Assembly: GCF_056712565.1 (NCBI RefSeq)
Contig: NZ_CM160072.1
Strand: one strand, 5' to 3'
Length of the DNA: 64,000 nucleotides
A program made the position numbers and the translations under genes. The notes below the pieces were generated by a model. The model did not search any database. It saw only the letters and a list, made by a program, of their open reading frames with translations, and was not told the origin of the DNA. Shown piece by piece: positions 19,152 to 57,390 of the stretch; position 1 is the first letter of the stretch; the number at the start of each line of letters is the position of its first letter.

Positions 19152-19228
19152 GGAGCGGTAGTTCAGTCGGTTAGAATACCTGCCTGTCACGCAGGGGGTC
19201 GCGGGTTCGAGTCCCGTCCGTTCCGCCA
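19152..19228 (+). tRNA. aspU: tRNA-Asp (GTC anticodon), distal tRNA of the rrn operon
   Basis: GGAGCGGTAGTTCAGTCGGTTAGAATACCTGCCTGTCACGCAGG...TTCCGCCA; identical to the second copy at 27375-27451. Confidence 0.95.
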
Positions 19229-27374: not shown

Positions 27375-27451
27375 GGAGCGGTAGTTCAGTCGGTTAGAAT
27401 ACCTGCCTGTCACGCAGGGGGTCGCGGGTTCGAGTCCCGTCCGTTCCGCCA
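27375..27451 (+). tRNA. aspV: tRNA-Asp (GTC anticodon); island-associated tRNA locus
   Basis: Exact repeat of the aspU sequence; immediately followed by an AT-rich region and the accessory island. Confidence 0.95.
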
Positions 27452-28565: not shown

Positions 28566-28904
28566 TGAGGTTTTATACCAGACGTTTTAGTGGTACTTAG
28601 CAAGAAAGAGCATTTCTCTTTTCTATTTTACACTATGGAACAAGTCTGCTAATTAATTTTACATATGTCTTTTAGGAGTGGTAAAAACTTTCCTAAAGTT
28701 ATTTATTGTCCTCTCAACATATAAGCTGTAATTCGAGTTTTCGGTTGAACTGTCAAAAATACATCATATACATCTATAAAACAGCAGGTACGGTTAATTA
28801 AGAATTTTTATTCGTGATTAACCGTACTTTGTCATTTTATCCTATAATGTTAAATTGCCTTTTTAAAATATAACAATAATGCAGATGAAAGACTCCCTGG
28901 TAAC

Positions 28905-29384
28905 TTAGAAAATCCGTTCACTCCAAAGGCTGTATGCACTGGTTCCGGCGACGCTGTGCTCCCAATTGATGCTCTCATAGGTAAATGACACAGACTCTTC
29001 CGCCTGCCCTGGACTGTCGTTAATGGTATGGGGAACGGTAAGGCCGATGTTTGAGAGCCGGGCGTTAGCCAGTTTCAGCTTGTAGTACGGTTCATTAATT
29101 CCAAAGCGGTTGGTGCGGTAGAATACAAAATCACAGGTCAGACATTCATTCTCTGAAATGGCCTTGCCCAGCAGAGGGGAGGATTTGTCCACCGGTTTCG
29201 TGATGGTCAACTCCTGATGGTTGACATTCTGCGCACGGCTCAGACCATGGGACAGTGACGTCACCATGATCTGATCCTGATGTGCAATCTGGGCTTTGTT
29301 ACCGATGGACGGCATTGACGAGCATCCGGATGAAATCAGCCCCTGAAGTTCTCCGTTCAGTGTCAGATAGACGGGATTTGCCAT
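28905..29384 (-). CDS. hcp: Hcp-family T6SS tube protein (second hcp copy)
   Basis: 159-aa product from MANPVYLTLNGELQG... with AAGGAG RBS 8 nt upstream; Hcp-like N-terminus; the ORF-track start at 29405 is an extension. Confidence 0.8.
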   Translation of the reverse strand: MANPVYLTLNGELQGLISSGCSSMPSIGNKAQIAHQDQIMVTSLSHGLSRAQNVNHQELTITKPVDKSSPLLGKAISENECLTCDFVFYRTNRFGINEPYYKLKLANARLSNIGLTVPHTINDSPGQAEESVSFTYESINWEHSVAGTSAYSLWSERIF

Positions 29385-29401
29385 TGTTATTCTCCTTAAT
29401 C

Positions 29402-30760
29402 TCAATGAGTTGGATGGACAGGTTCGGTTCTGTTATCCGTTGCCATATCCTGTCCGGTATTTTTCAGCAGCAGCCAGCGGCTTAACAGCCCGTCCAGCCG
29501 TTCGTTGATCTCTTTTTCCAACGCCTGTGTGTCCTGCTTCTGTGTACGGGTCTCCTGGTACTGCGTCAGCAGGTACTCCAGTGGTGTTTCTTGATTCAGT
29601 AACCGTTCGGCCTGCCAGGTCACCGTTTTGATATACGATAGGGTGAAACCCTGTTTCTCCGTCTCCTTCTTCATCATCAAATCTGCAAAATCCCGCAAAT
29701 TCTGCCGCGCTTGTTGCCAGCCCTTCATCTGCGGACTGGCTTGCGCCCGGTTTCTCAGCGTGTTGCTCCACATCCTGCTGGCTTCCTGCTGTTGCAGGCT
29801 TTCCGGCCAGAGGGTGTCTGCGGTGCGCATCATCTGCATTCCGGTTTCCAGCGGCTGTAGTGGCGGGGCATTCAGAAGCTGTTGCAGGTACTGTTCATAT
29901 TCTTTCAGTACCGGGGATGCCAACCAGACGGTGGCGGCTCCCTGTGTGGTATCCCTGACCTGTGTAAGCTGCTGCTGCATCGGATACGCCTGCCACCACC
30001 AGAGTGCAGATGCGATAACGGCAGTACAGGCGGCACCGGCAACAAAACCTTTTACCGTGTCGCCCTGTTTTGCTTTGTCGGCGTTATCTGCCACACCGCG
30101 CACCCCCACCCGCATTTCCGGCAGGTCGGGTAGGGGGGGCATGGTTTCCGCTGTGGCGGAAGCCGTGCCTTCAGGCGCATAGACCAGCGTTCTGACCATG
30201 GTCTGTGCCGCCGTATCAGTACGGTTTCTGGGCTGCGGCTCAAACCGCTTGCGTGTGTTCTGCACAAAATAAAGCAGATTTTCCACGCGCGGCTGGCGCT
30301 TCAGTTCCACTTGCTGGAGTTTGTCGCAGATAAGCTGCAAAGCCCGTTCCGTGCGGTAGAGCAACGAAAGATCATTTTCGGAAAAGGAAACCTGCTGGCG
30401 CAGGATATTCCCGGTGCGGGTGTTGAACCAGTCCAGCATCTCAGTCCGCGCCGGACCACTCTGCGGCCAGAATTTATCCCATTCGTGGATGATCATCGCA
30501 GCCAGCAGTTCCGCGCCTTCACAGAACCCTGCCAGTCCCTGATTACGTGTACGTGCCAGCGTATAGTAGGTGGCGGTATGCAAATCCACCCCGTTGGCCT
30601 TAAAAATCGACAGCGCCAGCGATTCCACCAGTTTCCAGTTCAGCTCCGGCTGTGACGGGTGGTTAGCTTTGTTAATTTCTTCGCGGATGGCGCTGAACTC
30701 CGGCAGGGCGCGCGGATCGCTGCCGGTAACGATAGTTTGTGTCAGTGCGTAATTGCTCAT
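29402..30760 (-). CDS. ImpA-N-domain T6SS-associated protein (VasL/TssA-like)
   Basis: 452-aa product from MSNYALTQTIVTGSDPRALPEFSAIREEINK (ImpA N-terminal motif), predicted TM segment mid-protein; start inferred at the ATG 10 nt after the tssM stop. Confidence 0.6.
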   Translation of the reverse strand: MSNYALTQTIVTGSDPRALPEFSAIREEINKANHPSQPELNWKLVESLALSIFKANGVDLHTATYYTLARTRNQGLAGFCEGAELLAAMIIHEWDKFWPQSGPARTEMLDWFNTRTGNILRQQVSFSENDLSLLYRTERALQLICDKLQQVELKRQPRVENLLYFVQNTRKRFEPQPRNRTDTAAQTMVRTLVYAPEGTASATAETMPPLPDLPEMRVGVRGVADNADKAKQGDTVKGFVAGAACTAVIASALWWWQAYPMQQQLTQVRDTTQGAATVWLASPVLKEYEQYLQQLLNAPPLQPLETGMQMMRTADTLWPESLQQQEASRMWSNTLRNRAQASPQMKGWQQARQNLRDFADLMMKKETEKQGFTLSYIKTVTWQAERLLNQETPLEYLLTQYQETRTQKQDTQALEKEINERLDGLLSRWLLLKNTGQDMATDNRTEPVHPTH

Positions 30761-52040: not shown

Positions 52041-53087
52041 ATGATAGAAATGAAAAATAACACGCCATTTCCTTTGTTGTCATTTGAAAAATATGGTCGT
52101 TATGGTCTTTTGTTTGATGTTATTGCTATTAAAATGTCATTGCGAATTAAAAATGGATTTTATGCTGATCTTGCTGAGTTTCAAAAAGAATTGTCCATGT
52201 CTGATGAATACTATGGGGAGTCTGAAACAAGTAGTCTAAAATCTGAAACAGACTTAGTTCTTTGTAAAAGAAATACAGATATTCACGTGACAGGTAGTGC
52301 TCATGCCCCTTCAGGGGATAAGTCTCAGTGGAAGGCTTGTGTGAGGGTTAATAGTTTTTCTAAAGAACTGAGTTTATCTGGTGTCCGCTACTTACAATAT
52401 GAGCGAAATCGTTGGCAGATGAGCTTACCAGATAAAATTATTAATGTTCCTCTACGCTATGAGCTTGCTTACGGTGGTATTTGGCAACCAGATGGTATGG
52501 AGAAATTGGTTTTTTCAGCAAACCCTGTAGGTTGTGGATATTATCCTGATATTTCTCAACTTAATACAAGTTGTCAATATAAACTCCCACAAATAACCAG
52601 CTCTGCTTTGTCAGAAAACGCTACCATTTTTAATGGGGAATCTGACTTTTTTCAAGGTGTTGGCCCTGTATCTCGATGGTGGAAAAGTCGCCTCCAGTAT
52701 GCAGGAACCTACAATGAAGTATGGCGTGAAAAGCGCTATCCCTATTTGCCGGATGATTTTGATGAGCGGTTCTACAATAGTGCTCATCCGGATATGATAT
52801 ACACGGGGTTTCTCTCTGGCGATGAAAACATCTCTCTTGAAGGTTTTTTTAAATTTGAACAGGTTGTTAAGACAAAATTGCCAGGTATACGACCTGTACT
52901 TATATTAAAAACCAAGCATAATACATCACATATGTTCTTACCTGTTGCGGATACAATGGTTATCGATTTAAGTCGACAGGAAATATACCTTACCTGGAGA
53001 TTAACAATACCTGATTTTTTTGGAATGAAAGAAGGAGTGCTGAGTTGTATTATTCCTGAATGTATAGGGAAAAAATATTATGGGTAA
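52041..53087 (+). CDS. Putative DUF2169-family T6SS adaptor protein
   Basis: 348-aa low-GC ORF directly between vgrG and a DUF4150/PAAR-like effector, the canonical adaptor position; assignment by context and size. Confidence 0.55.
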   Translation: MIEMKNNTPFPLLSFEKYGRYGLLFDVIAIKMSLRIKNGFYADLAEFQKELSMSDEYYGESETSSLKSETDLVLCKRNTDIHVTGSAHAPSGDKSQWKACVRVNSFSKELSLSGVRYLQYERNRWQMSLPDKIINVPLRYELAYGGIWQPDGMEKLVFSANPVGCGYYPDISQLNTSCQYKLPQITSSALSENATIFNGESDFFQGVGPVSRWWKSRLQYAGTYNEVWREKRYPYLPDDFDERFYNSAHPDMIYTGFLSGDENISLEGFFKFEQVVKTKLPGIRPVLILKTKHNTSHMFLPVADTMVIDLSRQEIYLTWRLTIPDFFGMKEGVLSCIIPECIGKKYYG

Positions 53088-54519
53088 CTATCATATCGGG
53101 GATGGTGAATGTAGATTTAGAGTCGTGTGTTCTTCACCAGATGTATGTGAAGTAGGAGGTTACAAGGTTCCTTTTGACAGTTACCAGACTTTAGATAGTG
53201 AAAGACAGTACAGTTCAACGGTATGGGCGCGTGGATGCAGAGCTTTAAATGTTGGTTCAGTGATTGCTGGAACTCAAAGTAATGCCGGTAAAGGTGTCAT
53301 ATCCGGTACATCTCAAGGAACGGGTGACTGTGTTATTTTAACGGGAAGTCCGACTGTAACAATAGAAGGGAAACCTGTTGCTTATCATGGTTCAGTTGTT
53401 GGGATTAATAACCACAACTGCCTTGGTAAATTGTATACCAAAATAAAATCACCAATGATTTCTGTCATTGATAGAACTTTTAATTATGAAAGGACTGCTG
53501 AAGTAATACACGATTTACTGCTTCTGAAGGATCTCCTCTCTGTTGGTAATATTTTTGACGGAGATATTTCACCTGAGGTTAAAAATGATTTATTTCAAAT
53601 AAAAGATCCTGACCAATCATGGGGGGAGTTTTTTTCAATAAAGAATATCAGAGAATCTCTCAGGAATGGTATTGAAGGAGATAAATCTCAGATCAGAGAA
53701 TGGTTTGGAGAGAACACACTTACTCAAATGGGGAATGGAGCAATCACCACTTTACATGGTGTGGCGGATTTAGCCTTAGTTACATTCGATGCTCTGTTAG
53801 ATACGGCAACGGCAACGGTTGCTTGCCCGATAGGCGAAGATGGGTTATGTGAACAGGCAAATATAAATTTAAATGAAAAAGAACAGGCTTTATTTAATAT
53901 TAGTAATTCATTGATAAATGGGCAAGCATGGGATGCACTTAAAAAAATGATAATGGATACAAATAATGGTGATCAGATTGCTCTGGTGCATTTTGCCAGC
54001 TTTTTATGGGGCTTTATGATACCCGCAAAAATACCAGAAGAAAATATCTCTGGGAAAGTATTTGTAGAGCCAGTAGTTTTAGAAGGTGGTGCTGGTGGCA
54101 ATTGGACAGTATTTGATGAGGTTTTAGATTCAAATGTAATAAAGCAATTGACTTTAACAGGCTGTGGAGCGGCCTGTGGGGAAATGTTGCTTAGGGATAG
54201 GTATATTTTTGTCACGCAAAATGTAATTGGAACAGAATTAACATCTATGACGTCGCTGGCAAACAAGCTTAATAAATTTGATGTCGGCTGGGAAGGGAAT
54301 GCAGTGAGCGAATCTAGTTTATATGCCCTCAGTAATACTGGTTCATGGGGAGCAATGATGTGGGATTCTGGAAGTAAAGTAGGGCATTGGGTACTTGTTA
54401 AGGGTGTTGATGATGCTGGGAATGTGATAATATATGATCCATATCAAGGGAGTCGATATCTGATGACTGAACAGGAATTTAAGGAGGTATGGAATGGGCA
54501 TAGTGTTTACAAACCATAA
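53080..54519 (+). CDS. DUF4150/PAAR-like T6SS effector with C-terminal papain-like cysteine-peptidase toxin domain
   Basis: 479-aa ORF; N-terminus carries DUF4150 motifs (SPDVCEVGG, SGTSQGTGD, GSPTVTIEGKPVAYHGS...NNHN); C-terminal ~130 aa has a Cys/His/Asp arrangement (GCGAACGEM ... GHWVLVKG ... IYDP); start overlaps the upstream gene by 8 nt. Confidence 0.75.
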   Translation: MGNYHIGDGECRFRVVCSSPDVCEVGGYKVPFDSYQTLDSERQYSSTVWARGCRALNVGSVIAGTQSNAGKGVISGTSQGTGDCVILTGSPTVTIEGKPVAYHGSVVGINNHNCLGKLYTKIKSPMISVIDRTFNYERTAEVIHDLLLLKDLLSVGNIFDGDISPEVKNDLFQIKDPDQSWGEFFSIKNIRESLRNGIEGDKSQIREWFGENTLTQMGNGAITTLHGVADLALVTFDALLDTATATVACPIGEDGLCEQANINLNEKEQALFNISNSLINGQAWDALKKMIMDTNNGDQIALVHFASFLWGFMIPAKIPEENISGKVFVEPVVLEGGAGGNWTVFDEVLDSNVIKQLTLTGCGAACGEMLLRDRYIFVTQNVIGTELTSMTSLANKLNKFDVGWEGNAVSESSLYALSNTGSWGAMMWDSGSKVGHWVLVKGVDDAGNVIIYDPYQGSRYLMTEQEFKEVWNGHSVYKP

Positions 54520-54784
54520 TATTGATTTGTTATCGGTTGAATTTGATGAGATTACAAAAAATTGTAATTACACTTTTAGTGTAGATGGAGAGACGGCTAT
54601 CTTTACTGCTAGAATATCAATAATAAGAAATATAAAGGGAATTAAATATAGCGAAGAACTTGATAAATTTATAATGTCAATAATGCCATTGCAGCCTAAA
54701 GTATCAAAAATTTTGGGAGGTGTTACTTGGGATTGTATTTGTGGTAAGGAAGTTGGATTTCCTGTGAGATTAATTGGTAAGTGA
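54494..54784 (+). CDS. Putative cognate immunity protein
   Basis: 96-aa ORF overlapping the effector 3' end by 26 nt, same strand, low GC; no signal peptide. Confidence 0.5.
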   Translation: MGIVFTNHNIDLLSVEFDEITKNCNYTFSVDGETAIFTARISIIRNIKGIKYSEELDKFIMSIMPLQPKVSKILGGVTWDCICGKEVGFPVRLIGK

Positions 54785-55041
54785 AGGGTGGTGAGGTATT
54801 TCTATATTTTTTTCGTGAAAGTCTTTAAAACTGAAATTATCTTGTTGGGAGCCCAAGGTGAGATCATAAAACGTATTATTTTATAAATATTGTTATGCAG
54901 GGAAAGGTCAAGTAATGCTGCTTTTTTGTACTAAATAATTCGCATTTTATGTTCAATAATTGAGGTGTTCCTTATTACCTAAAGCTGTTTTTCATTGCTT
55001 ATACATGATCAAATACTCATTGCCTAATTAAGGGGGACAAA

Positions 55042-55920
55042 ATGGAACTTAAAAAATTGATGGAACATATTTCTATTATTCCCGATTACAGGCAAGCCTG
55101 GAAAGTGGAACATAAATTGCCAGATATTCTATCTGTTAACTATTTGCGCCGTTATTTCTGGTGCATAATGCTGGGAAGATATAGAGGATTTGGGGAAACA
55201 CATCTCGATTTTTTGAAGTGATATGGTGATTTTGAAAATGGTATTCCTGTTCACGATATCATTGCCAGAGTTGTATCCTGTATCAGTCCTGCAAAATTTC
55301 ATGAGTGCTTTATTAACTGGATGCGTGACTGCCATTCCTCAGATGATAAAGATGTCATTGCAATTGATGGAAAAACGCTTCGGCACTCTTATGACAAGAG
55401 TCGCCGCAAGGGAGCGATTTATGTCATTAAAATCCGTCTTCATATTATTTGCGATGTCCCTGATGAACTTATTGATTTCACGTTTGAATGGAAAGAGCTG
55501 AAGAAATTATGCATGGCAGTCTCCTTTCGTTCAATAATAACAGAACAAAAGAAAGAGCCAGAAATGACGGACAGATATTATAGCATTTCTGCTGATTTAA
55601 CCGCAGAGAAGTTCGCCACAGCGAACCGAAATCACTGGTACGTGGAGAATAAGCTGCACTGGCATCTGGACGTGGTAATGAATAAAGACGACTGCAAAAT
55701 AAGAAGAGGAAATGCAGCAGAATTATTTTCAGGGATACGGAAGATCGCTATTAATATTTTAACGAAAGATAAGATACTCAAGGCAGGGGCAAGATGTAAG
55801 ATGTGAAAAGCAGCTGCGGACAGAGACTACCTCGCGTCAGTCCTTGCGGGGGCGGGCTTTCGTATTCTTGCTCTGCAAGGGATGATAAAAAGTGCAACTT
55901 TATTCCACGCAGCTATTTAG
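55042..55920 (+). mobile_element. Decayed ISAs1-family (H-repeat-associated) transposase remnant
   Basis: Fragments in several frames match an H-repeat/ISAs1 transposase: [26 protein letters not shown]..., [12 protein letters not shown]...[40 protein letters not shown], then C-terminal [21 protein letters not shown]...[31 protein letters not shown]; frameshifts plus an internal deletion of ~150 codons. Confidence 0.7.
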
Positions 55921-56034
55921 ACAGCGTACAGTAAACAAACGAAAGTTGTTATTTCAATGGTCAGGGCAAGAGCATGAAGTGTTTACTACACACTATGCTC
56001 TTGTCCTGGAGTCAGGTCTTGTTTGGAGGGATAA

Positions 56035-56538
56035 ATGGTAGATATTGTCGAGGCCGATAAAACGGATATTTATTTCATTCAGGAGAGTGTTTATGGCAAA
56101 ATCGGGTTGCCAGCTTTTGGTAATACAATAGGACCATCCGCACAGCAAGTTGTTAAAAAGGTATTCGCTGTCGTTAAAGAACGAGATAAGACACATGCAA
56201 AACAGAGATTATTGTTGGAATATAATGGTAACAAACTCTGGATGAATGCTATTGATGGCAGTGAAGCTATCCTACCAACAGAATTTTCTAAGCGATACGA
56301 ACTTTCATTATTCAATACTACTAATTTTGGAGAAGATCCTTTTCCTGATGTTAATTTATATAATAATATGAAATCAAGTTTTTTTGTAAGGTTTGGTGGA
56401 ACATCCCATCCCGAGGCTTGGGCTATTTATAATGCAAGTACGAAAGAGGTTAAATATATAGAAACTGCAAGAGAAATTGATAAAATATTCAGTGATTTTA
56501 ACTTGAGTGGTACATTGCCAATTCACATTGGTCAATGA
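56035..56538 (+). CDS. Hypothetical protein (orphan, low GC)
   Basis: 167-aa ORF with GGAGGG RBS, no signal peptide, AT-rich codon usage; no motif recognised. Confidence 0.5.
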   Translation: MVDIVEADKTDIYFIQESVYGKIGLPAFGNTIGPSAQQVVKKVFAVVKERDKTHAKQRLLLEYNGNKLWMNAIDGSEAILPTEFSKRYELSLFNTTNFGEDPFPDVNLYNNMKSSFFVRFGGTSHPEAWAIYNASTKEVKYIETAREIDKIFSDFNLSGTLPIHIGQ

Positions 56539-56607
56539 TTTTTTAAATTGTGTGATTAAATAATTGAACATTAATGATGATTTATAGCATCATTATTATT
56601 CTATAAC

Positions 56608-57120
56608 ATGAATAAACGGATTGAATGTGTTATGTTAAAAATGAGTTTATACGTAATAATATTGTTATTTTCCCTTCAGTTTAGTGCAGCCATTACTGGC
56701 AAGGAAAGTGAGGTTGTTTCACCATTATTAATGGATGTTAATCCTTCACTAACAATGGAAAATATTTCTGAATTATCCACATCATCGGAACCATCGCAAC
56801 AGGGGGTATTTCCTGTAATATGTACTCGACTTCATCCTGGCTCCGTAATGAAACGTCAGTTATTAACCGGCTGGGGGCCTGTTTTTATAATTGGTGATGA
56901 TCCTTTTTCTCTGCGCTGGATGAGTGAACATCTGGAGATCCTTAAATCGCTAAATGCCCTTGGTTTGGTTGTTAATGTTGAATCAGTAGAACGAATGGAG
57001 GTATTACAGCAGCGGGCTGATGGGTTATTGTTATTGCCAGTTATCTGCGATAATTTTGTGCAAGCTCTGCAATTAAATGCTTATCCGGTATTAATCACAG
57101 AGATGGAAATATCACAATGA
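56608..57120 (+). CDS. Hypothetical secreted protein (orphan, low GC)
   Basis: 170-aa ORF with predicted N-terminal signal peptide (MSLYVIILLFSLQFSAA); no motif recognised. Confidence 0.5.
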   Translation: MNKRIECVMLKMSLYVIILLFSLQFSAAITGKESEVVSPLLMDVNPSLTMENISELSTSSEPSQQGVFPVICTRLHPGSVMKRQLLTGWGPVFIIGDDPFSLRWMSEHLEILKSLNALGLVVNVESVERMEVLQQRADGLLLLPVICDNFVQALQLNAYPVLITEMEISQ

Positions 57121-57145
57121 TTAATAACATAATTACTGCTAATAA

Positions 57146-57390
57146 TATGGTGATTTTGAAAATGGTAATCCTGTTCACGACACCATAATCAGAGTTATGT
57201 CCTGTATCCGTTCAGTAAAATTTCACGAATGCTTTATTAACCGGATGCGTGAATGTCATTCTTCAGACGACATAGACGTCATTGCGATTGATGGAAAAGC
57301 ACTTCCACACTCCTGTGATAAAAGTCGTCGCAGGAGAGCGGGCTTTCGTAGTCTTCCCCGACTCTCCCCGGCCCTAAACACAACCCCCAC
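57146..57390 (+). mobile_element. Second ISAs1-family transposase fragment (yafF-like)
   Basis: Encodes [66 protein letters not shown], a diverged direct repeat (~85% identity by eye) of 55213-55410; abuts the yafV 3' end. Confidence 0.6.

Follow-up and report, generated by a model that had tools for sequence, protein, structure and literature searches.

The DNA around positions 55042-55920 of the window, i.e., of the whole 64-kb stretch that was analysed, carries recognisable pieces of a transposase, and this locus raises the question as to which element these pieces once belonged to, where that element begins and ends, and whether a strong hairpin located shortly to its right represents one of its termini. 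The H-repeat is an E. coli Rhs-locus element that has been described for decades, and alignment to intact members of this group indicates, with a probability of approximately 93%, that positions 54898-55875 constitute a dead copy of ISEc1 (H-repeat, H-rpt; ISAs1 family of DDE transposons), hereafter designated relic 1. The original prediction of an ISAs1-family transposase pseudogene with frameshifts and an internal deletion is correct and agrees with the RefSeq annotation of the identical locus in strain UTI89; relic 1 is an unremarkable pseudogene that had been annotated before, and its parent element has long been known. Its extent is defined by the following features:

54898-55875, + strand: relic 1, a defective ISEc1/H-repeat of 978 bp, composed of IS positions 1-532 and 845-1291 of the 1291-bp reference
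54898-54911, + strand: left terminal inverted repeat of relic 1, CAGGGAAAGGTCAA, where homology to intact copies begins
55862-55875, + strand: right terminal inverted repeat of relic 1, ...GTATTCTTGCTCTG (reverse complement CAGAGCAAGAATAC)

These limits were obtained with two independent rulers, which mapped both terminal inverted repeats as well as an internal deletion of IS positions 533-844. Window positions 54860-56040 are collinear with H-rptB of K-12 (the yhhI element, 1291 bp), with ends at 54898 and 55875, while the intact 1291-bp ISEc1 of strain JNE12-007 places IS positions 1-532 at 54898-55429 and positions 845-1291 at 55430-55875, BLAST returning two pieces at 92.7% and 91.7% identity. 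The left limit of homology to intact H-repeat copies, at 54898, begins CAGGGAAAGG..., and on the right homology to both H-rptB and the JNE12-007 copy ceases at 55875, where the right inverted repeat ...CGTATTCTTGCTCTG terminates. This right end (...CTTGCTCTG) contains a single mismatch in its terminal pentamer, CTCTG for CCCTG. An end at 55920, as originally proposed, therefore overshoots both the element (54898-55875) and its coding remnant (55042-55806). Over its retained length relic 1 is ~92% identical at the nucleotide level to intact ISEc1 copies, for which the RefSeq label is ‘ISAs1-like element ISEc1 family transposase’. At 978 bp it is short of a full ISAs1-type element of ~1.2-1.5 kb (1291 bp in the case of ISEc1), owing to a 312-bp deletion and a net loss of one base through small indels, and it is thus a defective derivative rather than an intact member of the ISAs1 family.

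Relic 1 has retained its two CAGGG-type terminal inverted repeats, and such termini are also present in ISEc1 and in an E. coli plasmid relative. Target-site duplications generated by members of the ISAs1 family measure 8-10 bp. No duplication of 8-10 bp was identified in the flanks of relic 1 (...ATTGTTATG on the left and CAAGGGATG... on the right), nor was a target-site duplication present at four other ISEc1 copies that were inspected, and the original insertion event at relic 1 can consequently not be reconstructed; subsequent recombination may have exchanged its flanks. ISArsp11, which likewise possesses CAGGG ends, provides an example of a 10-bp target-site duplication (PMC6305408).

The closest known counterpart, H-rptB of K-12, resembles relic 1 in its sequence (~92% identity), in its CAGGG... 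left and ...CCCTG-type right repeats, in its 144-bp leader preceding the transposase gene, and in its location downstream of polymorphic-toxin (Rhs/T6SS) cargo. Relic 1 differs from it in length (978 versus 1291 bp), in the lesions of its transposase gene (the 312-bp deletion, a pair of nonsense codons and three indels of 1 bp each), in the terminal mismatch of its right repeat and in belonging to a slightly divergent lineage. The coding remnant and its principal lesion are as follows:

55042-55806, + strand: transposase pseudogene of relic 1, in a single frame, annotated by RefSeq as ‘frameshifted; internal stop’
55429-55430, + strand: junction of the 312-bp in-frame deletion, through which IS positions 533-844 were lost, i.e., 104 codons corresponding to YhhI residues ~130-234

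It had been proposed that the transposase segments lie in different frames, with ~150 codons missing between them. When 55042-55875 is translated in a single frame, the one that starts at 55042, this frame contains each of the three recognisable segments (N-terminal, central and C-terminal) together with two stops; a stretch of 19 codons is scrambled between a +1 lesion (an additional T at 55132) and a compensating -1 lesion (after 55188). The two nonsense lesions are CAA to TGA at 55219-55221 and CGA to TGA at 55804-55806, and a further -1 lesion follows position 55851 in the tail of the pseudogene. The junction quoted in the original prediction, at which ...KSRRKGAI meets the next peptide, is indeed found in the sequence, although by alignment the loss amounts to 312 bp, or 104 codons. 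No microhomology was detected at this junction (55429|55430). The residues lost include the ...ITTDAMGCQ... block, which, judging from the position of this motif in DDE_Tnp_1-type enzymes, should hold the second catalytic aspartate.

Profile searches corroborate the similarity to ISAs1-family transposases that had been recognised beforehand. The 161-aa ORF at 55321-55806 scores 122.9 bits against the NCBIfam model NF033564 (ISAs1 family transposase; cut-off 70), compared to 412 bits for intact YhhI, and 35.8 bits against the Pfam family DDE_Tnp_1 (cut-off 23). The 59-aa N-terminal ORF reaches 23 bits against DDE_Tnp_1_assoc (PF13808), below the gathering score of 32.3 because the +1/-1 pair scrambles 19 codons; at the nucleotide level the region aligns as homologous. 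In the reference frame, the retained codons specify 89% amino-acid identity to YhhI, with 29 nonsynonymous and 18 synonymous differences, a split consistent with a mixture of earlier constraint and later decay. Given the 312-bp deletion, two nonsense codons and three single-base indels, the transposase gene of relic 1 can no longer be functional, and relic 1 is without function of its own.

Immediately to the right of relic 1 lie a short spacer, the hairpin and a gene for a hypothetical protein:

55876-55961, no strand assigned: spacer of 86 bp between relic 1 and the hairpin
55962-56008, + strand: hairpin of 47 bp with arms CAGGGCAAGAGCAT and ATGCTCTTGTCCTG and a 19-nt loop
56035-56538, + strand: orf167, encoding a hypothetical protein of 167 aa, located between two H-repeat relics of the same orientation

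The hairpin reported in the original prediction exists, although not at ~55962-56014; its arms occupy 55962-55975 and 55995-56008, with 13 of 14 positions paired and a G-T opposition as the exception. Its predicted fold has a centroid energy of -29.9 kcal/mol and a z-score of -3.67, and in strength it is one of the top four inverted repeats at short range within the 64-kb window. It had further been suspected of being the terminal structure of the element, an understandable notion, as the arms do resemble ISAs1-type repeats, but the hairpin begins 87 bp beyond the right inverted repeat of relic 1, which ends at 55875, and is thus not a terminus of relic 1.

The resemblance of the arms to insertion sequence ends takes several forms. 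The left arm starts with CAGGGCAAGA, a sequence identical to that with which the ISEc1 right repeat opens (its first ten bases) and present as an exact match only once in the 64 kb, and of the 14 positions of the complete arm CAGGGCAAGAGCAT, 11 agree with the ISEc1 right repeat CAGGGCAAGATTAC. The arms are similarly like the ISEc1 left repeat and like the repeats CAGGGAAAATTCATGAAC of a 50%-identical ISAs1 relative found on a plasmid, and they resemble the ISEc1 ends about as well as those two ends resemble each other. Additional information comes from a rare allele of orf167 (locus L006; 68% identical, 12 genomes), in which similarity to the window starts exactly at the right arm of the hairpin. 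In this allele a matching CAGGGCAAGCGTAT (CAGGGCAAG...) is located 197 bp further upstream and is complementary to the L006 right arm at 12 of 14 positions, a correspondence with a chance of ~1e-3 within 300 bp. A search for a parent of the resulting 225-bp repeat-bounded unit found a single copy in E. coli and no other match to its interior. The window and L006 thus present the same ends with a different interior, which fits a whittled repeat-bounded element better than a conserved RNA stem. Based on these data the odds lean slightly towards the hairpin consisting of what is left of an older ISAs1-type element, namely its two ends, after loss of the interior. Searches for a full-length parent element with the exact ends of the hairpin found none, and the hairpin flanks (...TCAATGGT and GAGTCAGG...) contain no target-site duplication.

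The principal alternative, which we consider unlikely, is that the hairpin serves as a transcript or control structure of orf167, e.g., a 5'-UTR stem, a processing site or an operator, and that its likeness to insertion sequence ends is coincidental. Its position agrees with such a role, as it lies 27 bp upstream of the start of orf167, a gene preceded by the ribosome-binding site GGAGGG; the sole arm mismatch, G-T, would be a G-U wobble only in + strand RNA, and the right arm plus the next 40 nt represent the only upstream part that is conserved in the 68%-identical allele. However, L006 has no local hairpin, and the matching CAGGGCAAG... repeat 197 bp upstream in that allele is in accordance with element ends and not with an RNA stem, while the arms fit the repeat consensus of the ISEc1 group about as well as the two ends of ISEc1 fit each other. 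The hairpin is also not terminator-like, as it lacks a subsequent T-run and was missed by the terminator scan, and it has no counterpart in Rfam, a scan of 54400-57600 at E values up to 1 having returned no match. Promoter and terminator scans in general yielded counts no higher than those obtained with shuffled sequence. Among the strains compared the arms are invariant, with one loop substitution in strain PapRG-04-4, so that no covariation signal is available. A second alternative, according to which the hairpin is the terminal structure of relic 1's own H-repeat copy, is extremely improbable despite the proximity of the two and the CAGGGCAAGA start that the arms share with the ISEc1 right inverted repeat, since the homology halts at 55875, with the canonical ...CTTGC(C/T)CTG terminus, for each of three independent right ends (intact or reference), the intervening 86 bp show no similarity to ISEc1, and the same hairpin is preceded in JNE12-007 by an intact ISEc1 that terminates 34 bp away.

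The reading of the hairpin as the remaining ends of an older element invites comparison with MITEs and internally deleted insertion sequences, with which it shares family-type terminal repeats and a lack of coding capacity. It differs from MITEs in that it measures 47 bp, occurs as one copy per genome, lacks a target-site duplication and has no parent that could be found. In each of 546 E. coli genomes the hairpin occupied a single place, and a pattern scan across representative genomes of 100,044 species produced 0 matches, on which grounds a multi-copy MITE was rejected. A 155-bp solo match to the left end in strain PAR was likewise considered as a MITE and discarded, as it represents a truncated left end adjacent to an orphan PAAR-VgrG.

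The surroundings of relic 1 are those of a type VI secretion system (T6SS) island. A full set of T6SS genes is located upstream of relic 1, beginning after the tRNA-Asp gene at window positions 27375-27451. Two tRNA-Asp genes with the same anticodon occur in the window, one at 19152-19228 following an rRNA operon, and the other, aspV, at 27375-27451, constituting the left anchor of the T6SS island. In UTI89 the gene order is Hcp, VgrG, a DUF2169 protein, a PAAR-like toxin, a small ORF and the ‘ISAs1 family transposase (frameshifted; internal stop)’, followed by a hypothetical protein, an ‘integrating conjugative element protein’, a second partial ISAs1 transposase, yafV, ivy and fadE. Relic 1 is directly downstream of a T6SS effector/immunity pair (53080-54519 and 54494-54784), which some RefSeq records name cpe1/cpi1. 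Cpe1 has been characterized as a cysteine-protease effector that cleaves GyrB and ParE (PMC12136450). The protein combines a PAAR-like N-terminus with a C39-type cysteine protease domain, and the cpe1/cpi1 pair was encountered in 335 of 5,426 E. coli genomes.

To the right, orf167 is followed by two additional features:

56608-57120, + strand: gene for a PFL_4695-family (DUF2859, TIGR03765) integrating-conjugative-element protein, far from any conjugation cluster
57144-57361, + strand: relic 2, a second H-repeat remnant adjoining yafV, in which IS positions ~323-519 are joined to ~1254-1291

Homologues of orf167 were found in E. coli only, and without a family assignment. A search of plasmids for the orf167/PFL_4695 module returned as its sole matches chromosomal fragments filed as plasmids. 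One record of this kind (L009; NZ_CP010208.1), a 56-kb ‘plasmid’ that includes yafV-ivy-fadE-lpcA, is evidently chromosomal. In relic 2, IS positions 323-519 correspond to 57144-57340 and IS ~1254-1291 reaches ~57361, the junction falling within a shared GGGGAGCG repeat; its internal deletion of ~734 bp lies between the imperfect repeats GTCGCCGCAGGGGAGCG and GTCCTTGCGGGGAGCG.

Relic 1 had been thought to mark the right border of the island, which is only approximately the case: within the aspV-yafV T6SS island, relic 1 is where the variable region of effector cargo ends on the right, but comparison with K-12 puts the border with the core genome at ~57361-57367, the right end of relic 2. K-12 lacks the T6SS genes, and its yafF pseudogene aligns to the last ~280 bp of the H-repeat and then to the yafV flank of the window from 57323 onward. 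This same yafV flank is common to yafF and relic 2, yafF representing a different deletion derivative, and the island border accordingly lies at relic 2, 1.5 kb to the right of relic 1. The yafF remnant (H-rpt ‘min 5’) and relic 2 resemble relic 1 as defective H-repeats of the same family and orientation at the yafV end of the locus, although they represent a separate insertion 1.3 kb rightward, and they differ from each other in what they retain, i.e., IS ~1002-1291 in yafF of K-12 and IS 323-519 plus ~1254-1291 in relic 2. In the place of the Hcp and VasL-domain genes of the window (~28900-30760), K-12 holds ykfM and yafU (L007 1358-2185), a region without nucleotide similarity to the window at E<=1e-5; the K-12 remnant may derive from a different variant of the island. 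Together, relics 1 and 2 help to explain how the island has been remodelled and, as in K-12, partially lost.

The distribution of relic 1 across E. coli was assessed in the same manner. Window positions 54900-56100 are 100% identical to the corresponding DNA in the chromosomes of UTI89, S88, APEC O1, IHE3034 and numerous further E. coli strains. ISEc1-like DNA is present in 5,338 of 5,426 complete E. coli genomes, at a median of five places per genome, and almost all full-length ISEc1 matches span ~1291 bp and exhibit ~91-93% identity to relic 1. Nearly all genomes contain such full-length copies. The deleted form, recognisable as one collinear piece, was retrieved from ~364 E. coli records at an identity of at least 95%, among which a variant in strain PM06121 is 95.5% identical to relic 1. 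Outside this locus, no copy with more than 95% identity to relic 1 was found in the 5,426 complete E. coli genomes, and the lack of a closer intact copy points to relic 1 as an old, slightly divergent lineage that became fixed at this locus.

That relic 1 with its lesions is kept at an identity of at least 99% in 278 genomes, and that two of its ORFs (59 and 161 aa) are open, could be taken to mean that a truncated protein was domesticated as a regulator or an inhibitor of transposition, either the 59-aa N-terminal DNA-binding fragment or the product of the 161-aa C-terminal ORF; this possibility is nevertheless very remote, because such retention is the expectation under clonal descent of closely related strains, the 59-aa ORF carries the 19 scrambled codons in its DDE_Tnp_1_assoc domain (23 bits against a Pfam cut-off of 32.3), and the 161-aa ORF begins at an internal ATG and lacks both the N-terminal domain and the deleted block that is predicted to be catalytic. 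Moreover, relic 1 is further broken by IS100 in PapRG-04-4, and a 21-bp scrap is all that remains of it in JNE12-007.

Rather than encoding a function, relic 1 serves as a landmark that bounds variable cargo, with cpe1-cpi1 at this location and Tle1/DUF3304 elsewhere. In PM06121 and PapRG-04-4, relic 1 is preceded by a different effector cassette, which encodes a Tle1-like phospholipase and DUF3304 proteins, and in both strains the left inverted repeat of relic 1 is the point from which the sequence resembles the window; in PapRG-04-4, IS100 splits relic 1. On the basis of this handful of compared strains, relic 1 may act as a recombination anchor, i.e., as a passive homology block or landing pad for the exchange of effector cassettes, and further ISEc1 copies would accumulate at it.

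Such additional copies are apparent at the same locus of JNE12-007 (L004 1508-6000), where an ISAs1 copy split by a group II intron (ltrA) is followed by the 21-bp scrap, identical to window 55800-55820, and then by an intact ISEc1. The right end of this ISEc1 abuts window position 55928, positions 55876-55927 being absent from that strain. In PM06121, a second left repeat, of the ISEc1 type, comes immediately after the first 19 bases of relic 1, while in RhsC of K-12 (L016 8303-10926) three H-repeats are arranged head to tail, the second of which abuts position ~24 of the third. These arrangements suggest, within a small sample, that H-repeats become inserted within or next to other H-repeats, or else that they recombine at favoured points. 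In strains unrelated to each other, junctions fall repeatedly at IS positions ~19-25 and ~1216-1236.

A more far-reaching proposal, which we put forward tentatively and regard as doubtful, is that the hairpin is a collapsed older ISAs1-type element and that H-repeat ends, including those in the hairpin, are preferred landing sites for ISEc1. Such preferences would explain why relic 1 is situated 87 bp and the JNE12-007 ISEc1 34 bp from the hairpin, and would also account for the nested left repeat of PM06121 and the joins at IS ~24 in RhsC of K-12. Transposition of H-repeats has not been observed (PMC3032704). If the proposal holds, ISEc1 has nevertheless been active and site-selective, and self-targeting would give rise to the ‘nests’ of insertion sequences by which exchangeable toxin cargo is bounded in Rhs and T6SS loci. 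The mildly new lead offered by this locus is limited to the repeat-like hairpin and the recurrent junctions of H-repeats within H-repeats, which hint at self-targeted insertion.

The H-repeats C1-C3 of the K-12 RhsC locus (ybfQ, ybfL and ybfD), which are joined without a spacer, are, like relic 1, defective and located downstream of toxin cargo. The internal deletion of C3, at 313 bp, is close in size to the 312-bp deletion of relic 1, but it is positioned at IS 912-1224 as opposed to 533-844.
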